NCBI RefSeq assembly: GCF_030684315.1
Contig: NC_081373.1
Span: forward strand, 56,902,864-56,966,863
Reading direction: 5' to 3'
DNA from: Stegostoma tigrinum
Lineage: Eukaryota
Length of the DNA: 64,000 nt
Positions within the stretch are counted from its first letter, which is position 1, and the number at the start of each line of letters is the position of its first letter. Below the pieces are notes generated by a model. It was given only the letters and a program-made list of their open reading frames with translations, ran no database searches and was not told the DNA's origin. This document shows, one piece after another, positions 10,008-34,934 of the stretch. Both the position numbers and the translations under genes were made by a program.

Positions 10008-11205
10008 TGTTGAGAGAAGTCTTGAGTAGGTGGGACGAACTCAGGTCTCTTGGCTTACGGGCATTACAAAGCAGAGGTTGATCCCTCTCCTCTGAGAACC
10101 AAAACTGAAAGACTCAAAGAGGAGCACCTTGTCCTATAATCTGTTAAAAGGAGTGTGAAAAGGGGTATAAGAGGCAACACAGTATGGAGCTGGAGGAACA
10201 CAGTTGGCCAGCCAACATCAGAGGAGCAGGAAAGTTGACATTTTGGGTTGGGATCCAAGTTCAGAAGAAGGGTCTTGACCCGAAACATCAACTTTCCTGC
10301 TCCTCTGATGCTGCATGGCCTGTTGTTTCCCCCAGATCGATACTGTGTTGTCTCTGATTCCAGTATCTGCAGTTCATGCTATCTCTGAAAAGGGGTGTAA
10401 CCTGTCTTTCAGCAACTTATAGTGATTAAATCAAATAAATCCCTGACACTTACTTTGCAATCAACAAATAACAATTTATTTATCTAACTCTAACAGTGAA
10501 CAAATTAACTAAACTATTAACAAAGCGAACAAATCCCTTCTAACTACTAACAATCCCCGAATAATACAAGATGCTAATCTATGATGTCCCAATAAATACA
10601 AGTCCCACTTAAATAACAGAACAATAGAATTTAATCTTTCAAAATTACAGCCAGGTTACGTCTTCTGGAATGTTCTGTATCTTCTCCGTCAATTCTTCTG
10701 TCAGGAATCTTAGTTAAGAGTCCCATATTACCCTTGTGATGGATAGTGCTTTCTCTAAGAGCTGAGAGCTATTATCTCCAGAAAATGACAGTTAACTCTA
10801 CCTTTTTTCCAACAGTCCCCCTTCTTTGATACCCTGATGACATATCAAATTCTGACAATCAGATTGCTCCTAGGATGTCAAAACCATCAGATTCAAATTC
10901 GATATGTTTTTGGTATCTAAGTACCTGGTTCAAATTGATTGGCTAAATTCAAAAACCTGTTGTCTTTGTAAAAATGCTGCTTGTCCTGATAATGATGTGG
11001 CCATTTGATACAAATGTTTCAATTCAGATGCTCTCTGTTGATGCAAATTTTCAAGCTGCTCACGGACATCTCCAAGCACAATCTTTTAAAGGGATGATTG
11101 AATACTCCCCCCTCCCCCAACATTATACAAACACCAATATTTTCAAACACCAAATTCCAAAGTCCTGCCTCCCAATCTATAAATACTGTACCCAACTTCA
11201 CAACA
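10008..11205. mobile_element. Possible solo LTR, interrupted by a Penelope-like insertion
   Basis: Ends TGTTGAGA...TCACAACA form an imperfect inverted repeat; no clear TSD. Confidence 0.4.
10171..10385. mobile_element. Penelope-like fold-back insertion with 15-bp TSD
   Basis: TSD TGAAAAGGGGT(A/G)TAA at 10156-10170 and 10386-10400; inverted arms; degenerate hammerhead core CAGAAGAAGGGTCTTGACCCGAAACATC. Confidence 0.8.
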
Positions 11206-25619: not shown

Positions 25620-27830
25620 ATAGAATCATACTGCATAGAAACAGGCCCTTTGGTCCAACCAGTCCATTCTGATCATAATCCCAAACTAAACTAGTCCCAT
25701 CTGCTTGAACTTGGCCCAAATCCCTCCCAAGATTTCTAATACATGTACTTATCTAAATGACTTTTAAACATTGTAACTGTACCGTCATTCACCACTTCCC
25801 CTAGAGGTTCATTCCAAACACAAACCACTTGGTTTAAAAAAATTATCCCTCATGTCTTTTTAAAACCTTTCTCCTTTCACCTTAAAAAAAATGCCTCCTT
25901 GTCTTGAAATCCACCACCCTAGGGAAAAGACCATTTACCTTATCTATACCCCTTATGATTTCATAAAACTCTATAAGCTCACCTCTCAACCTCCTACACT
26001 CCAATTAAAAAAAATCCTGGCCTATCCAACCTCTCCTTATAACTCAAACCCTCCATTCCCAGCCACATTGTGGTAAATTTCTTTAGAACCCTTTCCAGCC
26101 TAATGATATCCTTCCTATAACAGGGTGACCAGAATTCCAAAACAGACCTTACCAATATCCTATATAACCTCAACTTAATATCCCAACTCGTAAACTCAAA
26201 GGTCTGAGAATTGATGGCAGGCATCCTGAAACATCATCTTAACCCCCTATGTGTGATGCAAACTTCAACGAATTGTGTAATTGGACCACTAGGTCCCTCT
26301 GATCTACAATACTACCCAAGGCCCAACTTTTAATTGCATAAATCCTGCCCTTGTGTGTTTTACCAAAATGCAAAATATTACCTTTATTCAAATTAAACTC
26401 CATCTGCCGTTCCTCAGCCTGTTGACCCAATTGATCAAGATCTCTTTGTAATCATAGAAAACCTTCTTCACTGTCATCATCAATTTTGGTATCATCTGCA
26501 AACTTACTACCCATGCCTTCAATATTCTTATATAAATCATTTATATAAATAACTAATAAAAGTGGACTCAACATCGATCCCTTTGAAACATTGCTGGCCG
26601 CACGCCTCCAGTCCAAAAAACAACCCTTCGACATCATTCTGTTTCCTGCTGTTAAGCCAATTTTGTATCCAATTGGTGAACTCACCTTGAATCCCATGTG
26701 ACCTATACTAAATAGTCTACCATTCAGGACCTTGTCAAAGGCTTTACTAAAGTCCAAGTAACCAATATCTACCTCTCTGCCCTCAAATCTTCTTAGTTAC
26801 TTCCTCAAAAAAACTCAATCAAGTTTGTGAGACGTAATTTCCCTCTCACAAAACTATGCTGACTATTCCTAATCATGCCTTGCCTGTCCAAATGCATATA
26901 AATCCTATCTTTCAGAATCATCTCCAATAACTTACCCATCACCAAAGTCAGACTCACAGGTCTGTAGTACCCAGGCTTCTCATTACATCCCTTCTTAAAC
27001 AAACAACATTAGACACCCCAGTCATCCAGCATCTCACCTGTAGTTATAGGTGATACAAATATTTCTGGAAGAGGTCCCGCAATTTACTCTCTGACTTCCC
27101 ACAACATCTTGGGATACATTAGATAAAGTCCTGGAGATTTTTCCACCTTTATACTTTCTAAGATCTCCAGCACATCCTCTTCTGTAATGTGAACAGTTTT
27201 CAAAATATCTATACTTATTTCCCTGAGTTCTGTAGCCTCTGTTTCTTCCCCCACAGTAAAAACAGATGCAGAATATTAAAGCTTTTGTGCTCCTGAGATG
27301 CTGCTTGGCCTGCTGTGTTCATCCAGCCTCACATTTTGTTATCTCAGAATATTAATTTAATGTCTTTCCTAACTCCTGAGGTTCAATACGAAAATGACTA
27401 CTTTGATCCTTAGGGGGCCCTACTCTCTCTCTCTCTCTCGTTGCTCTCTTGTTCTTAATACACCTGTAGAATCTCTTTGGATGATCTTATTTGCCAAGGC
27501 TATCTCATATCCTTGCTTTGCCTTACTGATCTCCCTGTTAAGAATGCCTCTACGCTCTTTATACTGTTCAAGAGATTCATTTGAACACAGTTGTCTAAAT
27601 CTATGTATGATTCTCTTTTATTCCTGACTAAAAACTCAATATTTTTATTCAACCATTGTTCTCTTAATCTTACCAGCCTTACCTAACACTCTAATATAAT
27701 GACTCTGAACTTTCATTGTCACACTTTTGAATGCCTCCCACTTATCAGATATCCCTCTACCCATGAACAGTCTACTCCCAATCAACTTTTGAAAGTTCTT
27801 GTCTCATGCCATTAAAATTTGCTTTATTCC
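25620..27830 (-). mobile_element. CR1 LINE fragment (RT), degenerate
   Basis: PGYYRPVSLT, DFSKAFDKV and SKFADDTK in minus-strand ORFs. Confidence 0.9.
27280..27344 (+). mobile_element. 65-bp Penelope-like mini-insertion with 11-bp TSD
   Basis: TSD CAGAATATTAA at 27269-27279 and 27345-27355; insert matches the sequence just downstream of the hammerhead core in other copies. Confidence 0.85.
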
Positions 27831-30810: not shown

Positions 30811-31740
30811 CGATAACAAGGTGTAGAGCTGGATGAACACAGCAGGCCAAGCAGGAAAGCTGACATTTCGGGCCTAGACCCTTCTTCAGATTTTCTGTTC
30901 TGTCTCTCTGAACCAAGATTTTCTTGGTTATGGACCTGTTTGGGGGGTCCATAACCAAGAGACACAGTCTTAGGACACAGTGTAGACCATTCAGGTTTGA
31001 GATGGCAAAACGTTTCTTCACTCAAAGAACAGTGAACCTGTGGAATTTTATACCACAGCGGCTGTAGAGGCTAAATCAGTGAATATATGGAGAGAATGCA
31101 GGATTGTGGTTCAAGAAAGAGGATCAGCCATGACTGTATTCAAGTCATAGAGATATACAGCATGGAAACAGACCATTCAATCCAACCCATCCATGCCCAC
31201 CAGATATCCTACATTAATCTAGTCCCATTTGCCAGCATTTGGCCCTTGTCCCTGTACACCCTTCCTATTCATATACCCATCCGGATGTCTACAAATGTAG
31301 TGATCATACCAGTCTCCAACACTTCCTCTGGCAGCTCATTCCATACATACATCACCCTCTGAATGAGAAAGTTGCCCCTTATAAATCTTTCTCCTCTCAC
31401 CTTAAACTGTTGCCCTCTAGTTTTTGACTCTCCCACCCCGGGGAAAAGACCTCGCCTGTTTACCCTATCCATGCCCGTCATGCTTTTATAAATCTCTATA
31501 ACGTCCGCTCTCAGCCTCTGATGCACCAGGGAAAATAGCCACAGCCTATTCAACCTTTCCCTAGAGCTCAAACTCTCCAACGCTGGCAGCATCCTTGTAA
31601 GTCTTTTCTGAACCATTTCAAGTTTCACAACATCCTTCCTATAGCAGGGAGACCAGAATTGCAAGCAGTATGCCAAAAGTGGCCTAACCAATGTCCTGGA
31701 TGAACACAGCAGGCCAAGCAGCATCTCAGGAGCACAAAAG

Positions 31741-31772
31741 CTGACGTTTCGGGCCTAGACCCTTCATCAGAG
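31741..31772 (-). ncRNA. Minimal hammerhead ribozyme core (Penelope-associated)
   Basis: Minus strand CUGAUGA-A-GGGU(CUAG)GCCC-GAAAC-GUC; all conserved core nucleotides present. Confidence 0.75.
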
Positions 31773-32933
31773 AGGGGGACGGGGTGAGGGTTCTGGAATA
31801 AATAGGGAGAGAGGGGGAGGCGGACCGAAGATGGAGAGAAAAGAAGATAGGTGGAGAGAGTATAGGTGGGGAGGTAGGGAGGGGATAGGTCAGTCCAGGG
31901 AAGACGGACAGGTCAAGGAGGTGGGATGAGGTTAGTAGGTAGATGGGGATGCGGCTTGGGGTGGGAGGAAGGGATGGGTGAGAGGAAGAACAGGTTAGGG
32001 AGGCAGAGACAGGTTGGACTGGTTTTGGGATGCAGTGGGTGGAGGGGAAGAGCTGGGCTGGTTTAGGGATGCAGTTGGGGAAGGGGAGATTTTGAAACTG
32101 GTGAAGTCCACATTGATACCATTAGGCTGCAGGGTTCCCAGGCGGAATATGAGTTGCTGTTCCTGCAACCTACGGGTGGCATCATAGTGGCACTGCAGGA
32201 GGTCCATGATGGACATGTCATCTAAAGAATGGGAGGGCGAGTGGAAATGGTTTGCGACTGGGAGGTGCAGTTGTTTGTTGCGAACTGAGCTCTTTAGATG
32301 ACATGTCCATACTGCACCTCCCAGTCGCAAACCATTTCCACTCCCCCTCCCATTCTTTAGATGACATGTCCATTCCGCTCAGTTCGCAACAAACAACTGC
32401 ACCTCCCAGTCGCAAACCATTTCCACTCCCCCTCCCATTCTTTAGATGACATGTCCATCATGGGCCTCCTGCAGTGCCACAATGATGCCACCCGTAGGTT
32501 GCAGGAACAGCAACTCCTATTCCGCCTGGGAACCCTGCAGCCTAATGGTATCAATGTGGACTTCACCAGTTTCAAAATCTCCCCTTCCCCAACTGCATCC
32601 CTAAACCAGCCCAGTTTGTCCCCTCCCCCCACTGCATCACACAACCAGCCCAGCTCTTCCCCTCCACCCACTGCATCCCAAAACCAGTCCAACCTGTCTC
32701 TGCCTCCCTAACCTGTTCTTCCTCTCACCCATCCCTTCCTCCCACCCCAAGCCGCACCCCCATCTACCTACTAACCTCATCCCACCTCCTTGACCTGTCC
32801 GTCTTCCCTGGACTGACCTATCCCCTCCCTACCTCCCCACCTATACTCTCTCCACCTATCTTCTTTTCTCTCCATCTTCGGTCCGCCTCCCCCTTTCTCC
32901 CTATTTATTCCAGAACCCTCACCCCATCCCCCT

Positions 32934-32965
32934 CTCTGATGAAGGGTCTAGGCCCGAAACGTCAG
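32934..32965 (+). ncRNA. Minimal hammerhead ribozyme core (Penelope-associated)
   Basis: CTGATGA A GGGT CTAG GCCC GAAAC GTC; predicted cleavage after 32963. Confidence 0.75.
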
Positions 32966-33626
32966 CTTTTGTGCTCCTGAGATGCTGCTTGGCCTGCTGT
33001 GTTCATCCAGCCCCACATTTTATTATCTTGGATTCTCCAGCATCTGCAGTTCCCATTATCTCTCTCTAACCAATGTCCTGTATAGCCGCAACATGATTTC
33101 CCAACTCCTATACTCAATGCACTGACCATTAAAGGCAAGCATAACAAATGGCTTCTTCACTGTCCTATCTAATTTTAACTCCACTTCCAAGGAACTATGA
33201 ATCTTCACCCCAAGGTCTCTTTGTTCGGCAACACACCCCAGTACCTTACCATTAAGTGTATATTGAATGCAAAGGAGGCTCAAATAAAAAGGCTGAAGGG
33301 CCTATTCCTGCTCCTAGTTTGTACATACATGTTTTTATCAATTAATGGTTAATAGTCCAAAAGAAGAAATGAAACCAAAACCAAGATTAAATGTTTTCTT
33401 TAGGTCTTGTAGTGGTTGAATTATTTCAGTGCCAGTATACATGTAGCTCCAGGATTTGAAGCTGCATTGCGGTCATTATCATCTTCAGCTCTCTGCTTAA
33501 AGTCAGCTCTGATGCATAGTGTTTTGAATTCTACCACCAGCAGGGCAAGAAGGCAGGTCTTAAATCCACCCAGAACATGGATCCAACCACATGCTGTTGG
33601 CACAAATCTGATCCATGGCTAGCAGT

Positions 33627-33868
33627 TCAGGTGGGATGAGGTTAGTAGGTAGATGGGGGTGCGGCTTGGGGTGGGAGGAAGGGATGGGTGAGAGGAAGAA
33701 CAGGTTAGGGAGGCAGAGACAGGTTGGACTGGTTTTGGGATGCAGTGGGTGGAGGGGGAAGAGCTGGGCTGGTTGTGTGGTGCAGTGGGGGGAGGGGACG
33801 AACTGGGCTGGTTTAGGGATGCAGTTGGGGAAGGGGAGATTTTGAAACTGGTGAAGTCCACATTGATA
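33627..33868 (-). mobile_element. Internal fragment of the same Penelope-like family
   Basis: Near-identical (reverse complement) to ~32548-32787. Confidence 0.85.
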
Positions 33869-34526: not shown

Positions 34527-34570
34527 CTTGAAATAATTGAAAATGGTCAAACAACAATACTTGATTTACA

Positions 34571-34792
34571 GAGATAATGGGAACTGCAGATGCTGGAGAA
34601 TTCCAAGATAATAAAATGTGAGGCTGGATGAACACAGCAGGCCAAGCAGCATCTCAGGAGCACAAAAGCTGACGTTTCGGGCCTAGACCCTTCATCAGAG
34701 AGGGTGATGAAGGGTCTAGGCCCGAAACGTCAGCTTTTGTGCTCCTGAGATGCTGCTTGGCCTGCTGTGTTCATCCAGCCTCACATTTTATT
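34571..34792. mobile_element. Penelope-like mini-element forming a perfect 90-bp hairpin, 14-bp TSD
   Basis: TSD ATACTTGATTTACA at 34557-34570 and 34793-34806; arms 34608-34697 and 34705-34794; 7-nt loop. Confidence 0.9.
34669..34700 (-). ncRNA. Minimal hammerhead ribozyme core, sense to the DYDC1 pre-mRNA
   Basis: Minus strand CUGAUGAAGGGUCUAGGCCCGAAACGUC, intact. Confidence 0.72.
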
Positions 34793-34934
34793 ATACTTGA
34801 TTTACACTTGTTTAAACATCAAAGGCTTTGAAACAAACTATTTCTAACACTCATACAGACACATAGACCAATTCTTTGGTACTAAAATAATGGAATACAG
34901 ACCAATAAATTCTCATTTGATATTCAACAGAATC

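Follow-up and report, generated by a model that had tools for sequence, protein, structure and literature searches.

Genomic scars suggest hammerhead cleavage of the RNA of a Penelope-like element in Stegostoma tigrinum

A 65-bp insertion in a 64,000-nucleotide stretch of the Stegostoma tigrinum genome (NC_081373.1, positions 56,902,864 to 56,966,863 of the forward strand; this whole stretch is referred to as the window, and its coordinates are used below) is a stub of a Penelope-like element that begins exactly at the bond where a hammerhead ribozyme in longer copies of the same family is predicted to cut. We estimate a probability of about two in three (0.66) that the stub arose when a reverse transcriptase (RT) ran off the end of hammerhead-cut RNA, with cleavage affecting a minority of RNAs that are otherwise capped 32 nucleotides upstream of the cut. 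At the level of the family, 5' ends, fold-backs and A-rich inserts make it very probable that cleaved RNA is present and at times serves as template, while it is likely but not certain that this particular copy was made from cleaved RNA. Read from these genomic scars, the pattern suggests that the ribozyme cuts in living animals by self-cleavage 3' of C17. An earlier note had taken the insert to be the fossil of a reverse-transcribed 3' cleavage product and hence a sign of ribozyme activity in vivo. The first of these claims is supported for the family by junctions, fold-backs and A-runs and stays uncertain for the single copy, given the stubs found at +16; the second gains support from the scars at the GTC/AGC bond, with pausing of the RT at a hairpin as its rival.

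The insert and its target site are well defined. With position 0 set to window position 32964 in a long reference copy, which is the first A after the hammerhead GTC, the stub (27280..27344, plus strand) extends from the predicted cut to +65, the first internal RT start site in the pseudo-long terminal repeat (pLTR) of the element, and is 96.9% identical to 32964-33028. It lies between two exact 11-bp copies of the target site, CAGAATATTAA, at 27269..27279 and 27345..27355 on the plus strand. The match can be extended on neither side, the first base of the right copy equals the element's next base (1-nt microhomology), and the chance of an exact 11-mer at both boundaries is about 4e-5. The coordinates and the perfect duplication given in the earlier note were thus exact. 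The worry that the first A abuts a duplication ending in A is also settled: since a T follows the right-hand duplicate, the A must come from the insert, which leaves a blunt 5' junction without microhomology. The first 14-mer of the insert has six matches in the window, and the other five all stand directly 3' of GTC, as had been claimed for fuller copies. The insertion sits in a degenerate long interspersed nuclear element (LINE; 26452..27520, minus strand, with an RT-like frame at 26452-26796), which we take from its motifs to be of the CR1/L2 type, and excision of the insert with one duplicate restores a fragment of a minus-strand LINE-like reading frame. In itself the stub is an ordinary truncated insertion, useful as evidence.

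The first 25 bases of the insert have 179,596 exact occurrences in the 3.2-Gb genome. In a long copy (L396), an RT domain is located upstream of the pLTR (Pfam RVT_1, E 6.5e-6, 26.4 bits with a cut-off of 29.6), and the long-copy frame gave a weak match to the GIY-YIG endonuclease (E 0.0073, under the Pfam cut-off). Among 272 sampled copies, 243 had 3' ends at +61..+70 or +95..+100. These ends match the pair of internal RT start sites and the optional tail known from the Anolis element PAc (PMC11167929), so that the stub spans the first of the two sites to position 0, and they agree with the optional 30-40 bp tail that characterizes endonuclease-positive (EN+) Penelope-like elements. The inversions and target-site duplications expected of such elements were present at 43 and 9, respectively, of 92 loci with a 5' junction at site 0. 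No full-length element was found among the 20 long loci in which it was sought, the shared upstream sequence being at most about 1.6 kb. We rejected a non-LTR retrozyme, consisting of tandem noncoding hammerhead units, since the insert is single and lacks the core and the long copies are tied to an RT frame.

The ribozyme is predicted from the reference copy (32361..33063, plus strand), which is long and 5'-truncated and contains the end of the putative endonuclease frame, the pLTR, the hammerhead and a tail that reaches +100; its inverted arm is at 31696-32167. The candidate is a minimal type I hammerhead (32936..32965, plus strand) composed of CUGAUGA, an extra A, a helix II of 4-5 bp, GAAACGUC and a helix I of 2 bp. 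Its predicted cut lies between 32963 and 32964, and the hammerhead corresponds to positions -28 to -1. The core CUGANGA...GAAA...UH, helix II, the extra base after position 9 and the palindromic 15.2-16.2 are all present at 32936-32963, and the core bases are near-invariant in 79 long copies, CpG decay aside. As the monomer folds into an inactive rod, cleavage would need a dimer or the help of a protein. Two other hammerhead families were seen in the genome. An older one (CUGAGGA, a GUU cut and a 4-bp helix I; L265, L281, L283, L125, L005 and others) consists mostly of short solo copies that start a few bases 5' of the core and have unrelated flanks, and a distant one (L115, L156, L210, L233, L057) has a long helix II and a 3-bp helix I.

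If cleaved RNA serves as template, 5' ends should be enriched at the GTC/AGC bond, and the earlier note had predicted a spike there. Using a filter that required all four upstream bases to mismatch the element, we counted 1,001 junctions at site 0, compared with 849 at -14, 120 at -2, 282 at -1, 315 at +1, 413 at +2 and 659 at +16, which makes site 0 a local peak. The other AG starts, at -14 and +16, came close to site 0 in count, and the loci were therefore classified; raw counts were rejected as a sole test, being nearly as high at these two starts and dominated there by inversions. The class fractions were taken from the first loci listed, mainly on contigs 1-2, and comprised 92 of the 1,001 loci at site 0, 50 of the 849 at -14, 50 of the 659 at +16 and 30 each of the 120, 282, 315 and 413 at -2, -1, +1 and +2.

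Direct stubs flanked by duplications made up 9 of the 92 loci at site 0, whereas the upstream offsets yielded 0/50 (-14), 1/30 (-2) and 2/30 (-1) and the downstream offsets 3/30 (+1), 1/30 (+2) and 5/50 (+16). The false-positive rate of the duplication call was 1 in 600 shuffled pairs. Scaled to all junctions, we estimate 98 stubs at site 0, compared with 0, 4 and 19 at -14, -2 and -1 and 32, 14 and 66 at +1, +2 and +16. The excess at site 0 is 8.8-fold (95% interval 2.9-32) over the three upstream controls and 3.7-fold (95% interval 1.6-8.1) over all six. The expected spike is found as a local peak of junctions; in duplication-flanked stubs, site 0 is about ninefold above the upstream controls and not clearly above +16.

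These counts also bear on whether the stub at 27280-27344 could be an ordinary 5' truncation, random or derived from a trimmed -32 product, that came to end at the site by chance, whether or not the family cleaves. Direct stubs were found at every tested offset except -14, including some 66 at +16, AG starts are favoured in the raw counts, and the insert was singled out among several copies because it matched. On the other hand, its 5' junction is blunt and free of microhomology, and the low background just upstream (0, 4 and 19 versus 98) sets the share expected by chance at about 10-30%, a figure that would be higher only if +16 were a fair background. We consider a chance end distinctly unlikely.

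Two other features of the junctions were recorded. Site 0 was joined directly to RT-coding sequence in two loci (L051, L287) and to one common, unassigned sequence in two others (L038, L059), as if the RT, on reaching the cut end, had switched to internal RNA ends. Loss of the single base C17, seen in 6 of the 92 loci, was rejected as a sign of cleavage since loss of the G at +1 was equally frequent (5 of the 30 loci drawn from 413).

The same bond carries A-rich scars. Inserts of 3-12 nt between GTC and AGC were present in 61 copies, of which, by eye, 39 were at least 60% A and 22 were pure A, with up to 12 residues. Two control bonds had 94 and 8 inserts, not one of them A-rich (Fisher 3e-22), and inspection by eye identified these inserts as local duplications or variants thereof. 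GTC followed by AAAA occurred 34 times, versus 2 for a control bond. In 30 of these loci the sequence continued into the element's own tail (21), internal element sequence (4), flank (3) or the tail of a sister element (2). The family's AGCTTTT was absent after the A-run in 9 of the 30, and the variety of what follows argues that the A-run travels with the GTC end. Among 30 insert loci, all 19 that were A-rich extended upstream to -40 or beyond, whereas 5 of the other 11 started at -29..-32. A sister subfamily had A-rich sequence in 17 of 41 inserts (2-12 nt), including 3 of 11 in a variant that lacks the AGCT palindrome; three rows of this sample represent one repeated locus, its 2-nt cases are weak, and it has no matched control.

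The simplest reading of the A-run scars is a free GUC 3' end of the RNA, healed and oligoadenylated, onto which the RT jumped. Tailing of a cleaved GUC end would accord with what is generally known of RNA decay. In non-templated addition, the R2 RT attaches mostly A to the cDNA (PMC8857657), and additions of that kind would appear as T on the sense strand, unlike the A-runs at GTC. Six loci (L331, L341, L350, L441, L447, L450) had a T between GTC and the A-run, or a T-rich scar; such scars may reflect uridylation that preceded adenylation, or nucleotides that the RT added without a template. Most of the 94 inserts at one control bond (-15/-14) are instances of a 12-bp tandem duplication that recurs genome-wide, spans the hammerhead core and the 5' arm of helix II and probably arose by a slip through TCT microhomology.

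Fold-backs provide a further signal. We found 709 perfect fold-backs at the cut-site AGCT, compared with 50 at ACGT (-5), 23 at GGCC (+27) and 110 at CTAG (-16), the last with a longer search pattern. The free ends of 153 inverted arms from selected loci fell at 0..+4 in 17 cases and at -5..-1 in none, and among 123 unselected arms 8 ends, one of them the 27280-27344 insert, were at 0..+4 and again none at -5..-1.

Such edges could arise without cleavage if the base of the rod hairpin (+1) makes the RT pause and the cDNAs, ending near AGCT, fold back on this palindrome or stutter on A0 before synthesis resumes on the same uncut RNA. The RNA preferentially folds into the rod, whose base falls at the site, AGCT is palindromic, and inserts of three A perfect a 12-bp palindrome (5 of the 61 rows). 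Telomerase-related RTs can copy reiteratively, which would allow for the stutter. Self-priming at palindromes has been proposed for rotifer Penelopes (PMC3846280). A pause does not, however, account for GTC-bound A-runs that lead into internal element sequence or flank (7/30), nor for A-runs in the palindrome-free AGCC variant (3/11). The upstream reach of the A-rich loci is a further difficulty, with 19/19 at -40 or beyond compared with 51 of 105 unselected arms past -1 that get beyond -34, although 2 of the 30 GTC-AAAA loci stopped at -28 and -35. We regard a pause without cleavage as unlikely.

The earlier note had also proposed that the hammerhead site defines the 5' end of the RNA, and this was not borne out. 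The main 5' start of the family is at -32 (32932..32932, plus strand), four bases before the hammerhead core, where 7,022 filtered junctions were counted, 7-fold more than the 1,001 at site 0. A G stood just 5' of the start in 27 of 30 loci at -32, as opposed to 19 of 92 at site 0 (p 1e-11). By eye, the upstream G was seen in 83 of 100 among the matches listed, and in 31 of 48 when the 52 rows in which an inverted arm could supply it were set aside; the genomic base at this position is C. Copying of the cap by RTs is familiar from work on LINE-1 and retroviruses, and the G-marked edge at -32 is likely the result of RT run-off from capped RNA, with -32 as the likely transcription start. That site 0 lacks this extra G agrees with an end that carries no cap. 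The -32 start lies in a pyrimidine run that resembles a TCT initiator. A splice acceptor at -32 was rejected, as the preceding genomic bases are CC and not AG. Of the 123 unselected arms, 30 had their free end at -28..-34, 24 at -6..-27, 3 at -35..-60 and 48 further upstream. Taking about 2,800 junctions (at an assumed filter pass rate of 0.36) together with 1,418 fold-back arms for site 0, we estimate that cleaved RNA is a minority template, representing roughly 2% of copies or arms, and site 0 a minor 5' end. The D. virilis start site, 46 bp before an intron (PMC2377424), is not directly comparable with -32.

Copying of a cleaved minority could have proceeded as follows. Transcription would give a capped sense RNA from -32, and the hammerhead, either dimeric or assisted by a protein, would cut a minority of these RNAs at the GUC/A bond, after which the upstream product would be end-healed and oligoadenylated. 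The RT, primed at the nicked target, would start inside the RNA at +65 or +100 and run off at 0. Immediate integration of the cDNA would then leave a stub such as 27280-27344, pairing with a twin cDNA through the AGCT end would give fold-backs, and a jump onto the GUC(A)n end with continued synthesis would generate long copies with an A-run scar.

The genomic data reveal that a break occurred but not by what chemistry, and a host nuclease acting on the RNA, or the element's endonuclease acting on DNA, might have broken the GTC/AGC bond in place of the ribozyme. PAc, the Poseidon element of Anolis carolinensis, is indeed able to nick its own pLTR (PMC11167929). The break is, however, at the exact NUH bond predicted beforehand, and PAc prefers AT-rich DNA (PMC11167929), which GTC/AGC is not. 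Moreover, cleavage of PAc RNA was lost with mutations in the core and kept with mutations in the endonuclease (PMC11167929). We consider a nuclease origin highly improbable.

Several observations weigh against copying of hammerhead-cut RNA. In the junction data, raw counts at the neighbouring AG starts approach that at site 0 (849 and 659 versus 1,001), direct stubs at +16 are inseparable in rate from those at site 0 (estimates of 66 and 98, P=0.78), and in 5 of the 9 direct stubs found there a microhomology of 2-4 nt leaves the true end of the cDNA ambiguous. Scars with an A-run are rare (some 40 among 180,000 copies), A-runs are also seen at inversion junctions at other offsets, and in the distant hammerhead family 0 of 4 cut-site inserts, a small sample, were A-rich, all being duplications. 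The edge at 0 in fold-backs and arms would also be left by an RT that pauses where the rod has its base. As for the ribozyme, helix I has only 2 bp, short of the 4-5 bp of minimal type I hammerheads, the monomer favours the rod pairing of CUGAUG with CGUCAG (-11.4 versus -3.6 kcal/mol), and no Rfam hammerhead model was among the 24 matches in the window at E<=1. In PAc, the RNA-seq data contained no reads beginning or ending at the cut site, according to the parts of PMC11167929 used here, and ribozyme mutants inserted normally in vitro (PMC11167929).

A bolder and more doubtful proposal, which we put forward tentatively, is that the hammerhead enables retrovirus-like strand transfer in Penelope-like elements. 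A cap at -32 and a cut in the downstream pLTR would leave a 32-nt terminal repeat, and internal RT start would possibly yield a short strong-stop cDNA that transfers to the cut 3' end, allowing the whole element to be copied. Stubs at -32 and 0 might then represent transfers that failed, and GTC(A)nAGC copies those that took place without the repeat. In favour are internal priming near the 5' end of the RNA, the two sharp edges and the finding that A-run copies are nearly always long. Neutral or contrary evidence comes from several sides: carry-over of the cap G into long copies was not seen (197 versus 247 at a control base), the -32 start was joined end-to-end onto GTC in 2 of 30 loci, none with an A-run (the overlapping control was not clean), and Naiads thrive without hammerheads (PMC8557442). 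Strand transfer gained no direct support from the cap-G and end-join counts, and read-through of uncut tandems accounts for the long copies equally well.

Other copies in the window illustrate related outcomes. The head-to-head sister insertion at 34570..34799 has arms that stop near -33 and -27, the common outcome. Head-to-head pLTR insertions form long hairpins at 2044-2413, 10185-10386, 31696-33063 and 34570-34799, and spurious Rfam microRNA matches near 2160-2390, 10200-10320 and 34650-34750 derive from hairpins of inverted copies. An internal piece of the pLTR, 240 bp long and on the minus strand (33629-33868), is 98.8% identical to the reference copy and lacks the hammerhead and tail.

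The function of hammerheads in Penelope-like elements has been called unclear (PMC4209133, PMC8557442, PMC6765202, PMC3846280). Our literature search, with thin coverage of subscription journals, found no paper on Penelope insertion ends at the hammerhead cut or on oligo(A) scars, and the early parts of a retrozyme preprint (10.64898/2026.07.22.740005) do not address insertion ends. A family of 180,000 copies offers a fossil readout that RNA-seq lacks, in which both RNA ends, the likely cap at -32 and the cut at 0, are placed to the base. The scars further suggest that the upstream product is healed and tailed, and they indicate an RT able to jump across the cut. The open question of the hammerhead's role can thereby be recast as exact predictions, both for the existing PAc system in vitro and for the sequencing of caps, 3' ends, 5'-OH ends and cyclic phosphates.

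The closest known system is PAc (Frangieh et al. 2024, PMC11167929). Like the shark family, it has a frame with an RT domain, a hammerhead in the pLTR, an AT-rich target and, downstream of the cut, a pair of internal RT start sites spaced by about 35 nt; its C-terminal GIY-YIG domain has a putative counterpart in the shark frame. The PAc hammerhead, too, is reported to need a dimer or the help of a protein for its activity (PMC11167929). Unprocessed RNA is dominant in both, while the scars described here also speak for a cleaved minority, for tailing of the GUC end and for a capped start that lies 32 nt upstream. With the minimal hammerheads of metazoan Penelopes (Cervera and De la Pena 2014, PMC4209133), the ribozyme has in common the conserved core, the extra base before helix II, the G10.1-C11.1 pair, the palindromic helix III stub and the location in the pLTR. 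Its helix I of 2 bp is as reported there for D. virilis, in contrast to 4-5 bp in others. That paper states that in vivo evidence was absent and proposes circles; the A-run scars fit a tailed linear product and an RT jump better, although seamless ligation would be invisible.

The family also has the 5' truncation, head-to-head inverted copies, palindromic junctions, optional 30-40 bp tail and 8-10 bp duplications of canonical EN+ insertions (PMC8557442, PMC3846280). In those studies the palindromes are read as self-priming, possibly on an antisense template, whereas the extra G at -32 favours a sense template that bears a cap. Finally, as for the HDV-like (hepatitis delta virus-like) ribozyme of R2 (Eickbush et al. 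2013, PMC3774820), genomic 5' junctions appear to record the ribozyme cut of the template RNA. In R2, cleavage provides the standard end of the template, whereas here it would account for about 2% of arms, and the RT starts internally, near the 5' end of the RNA.
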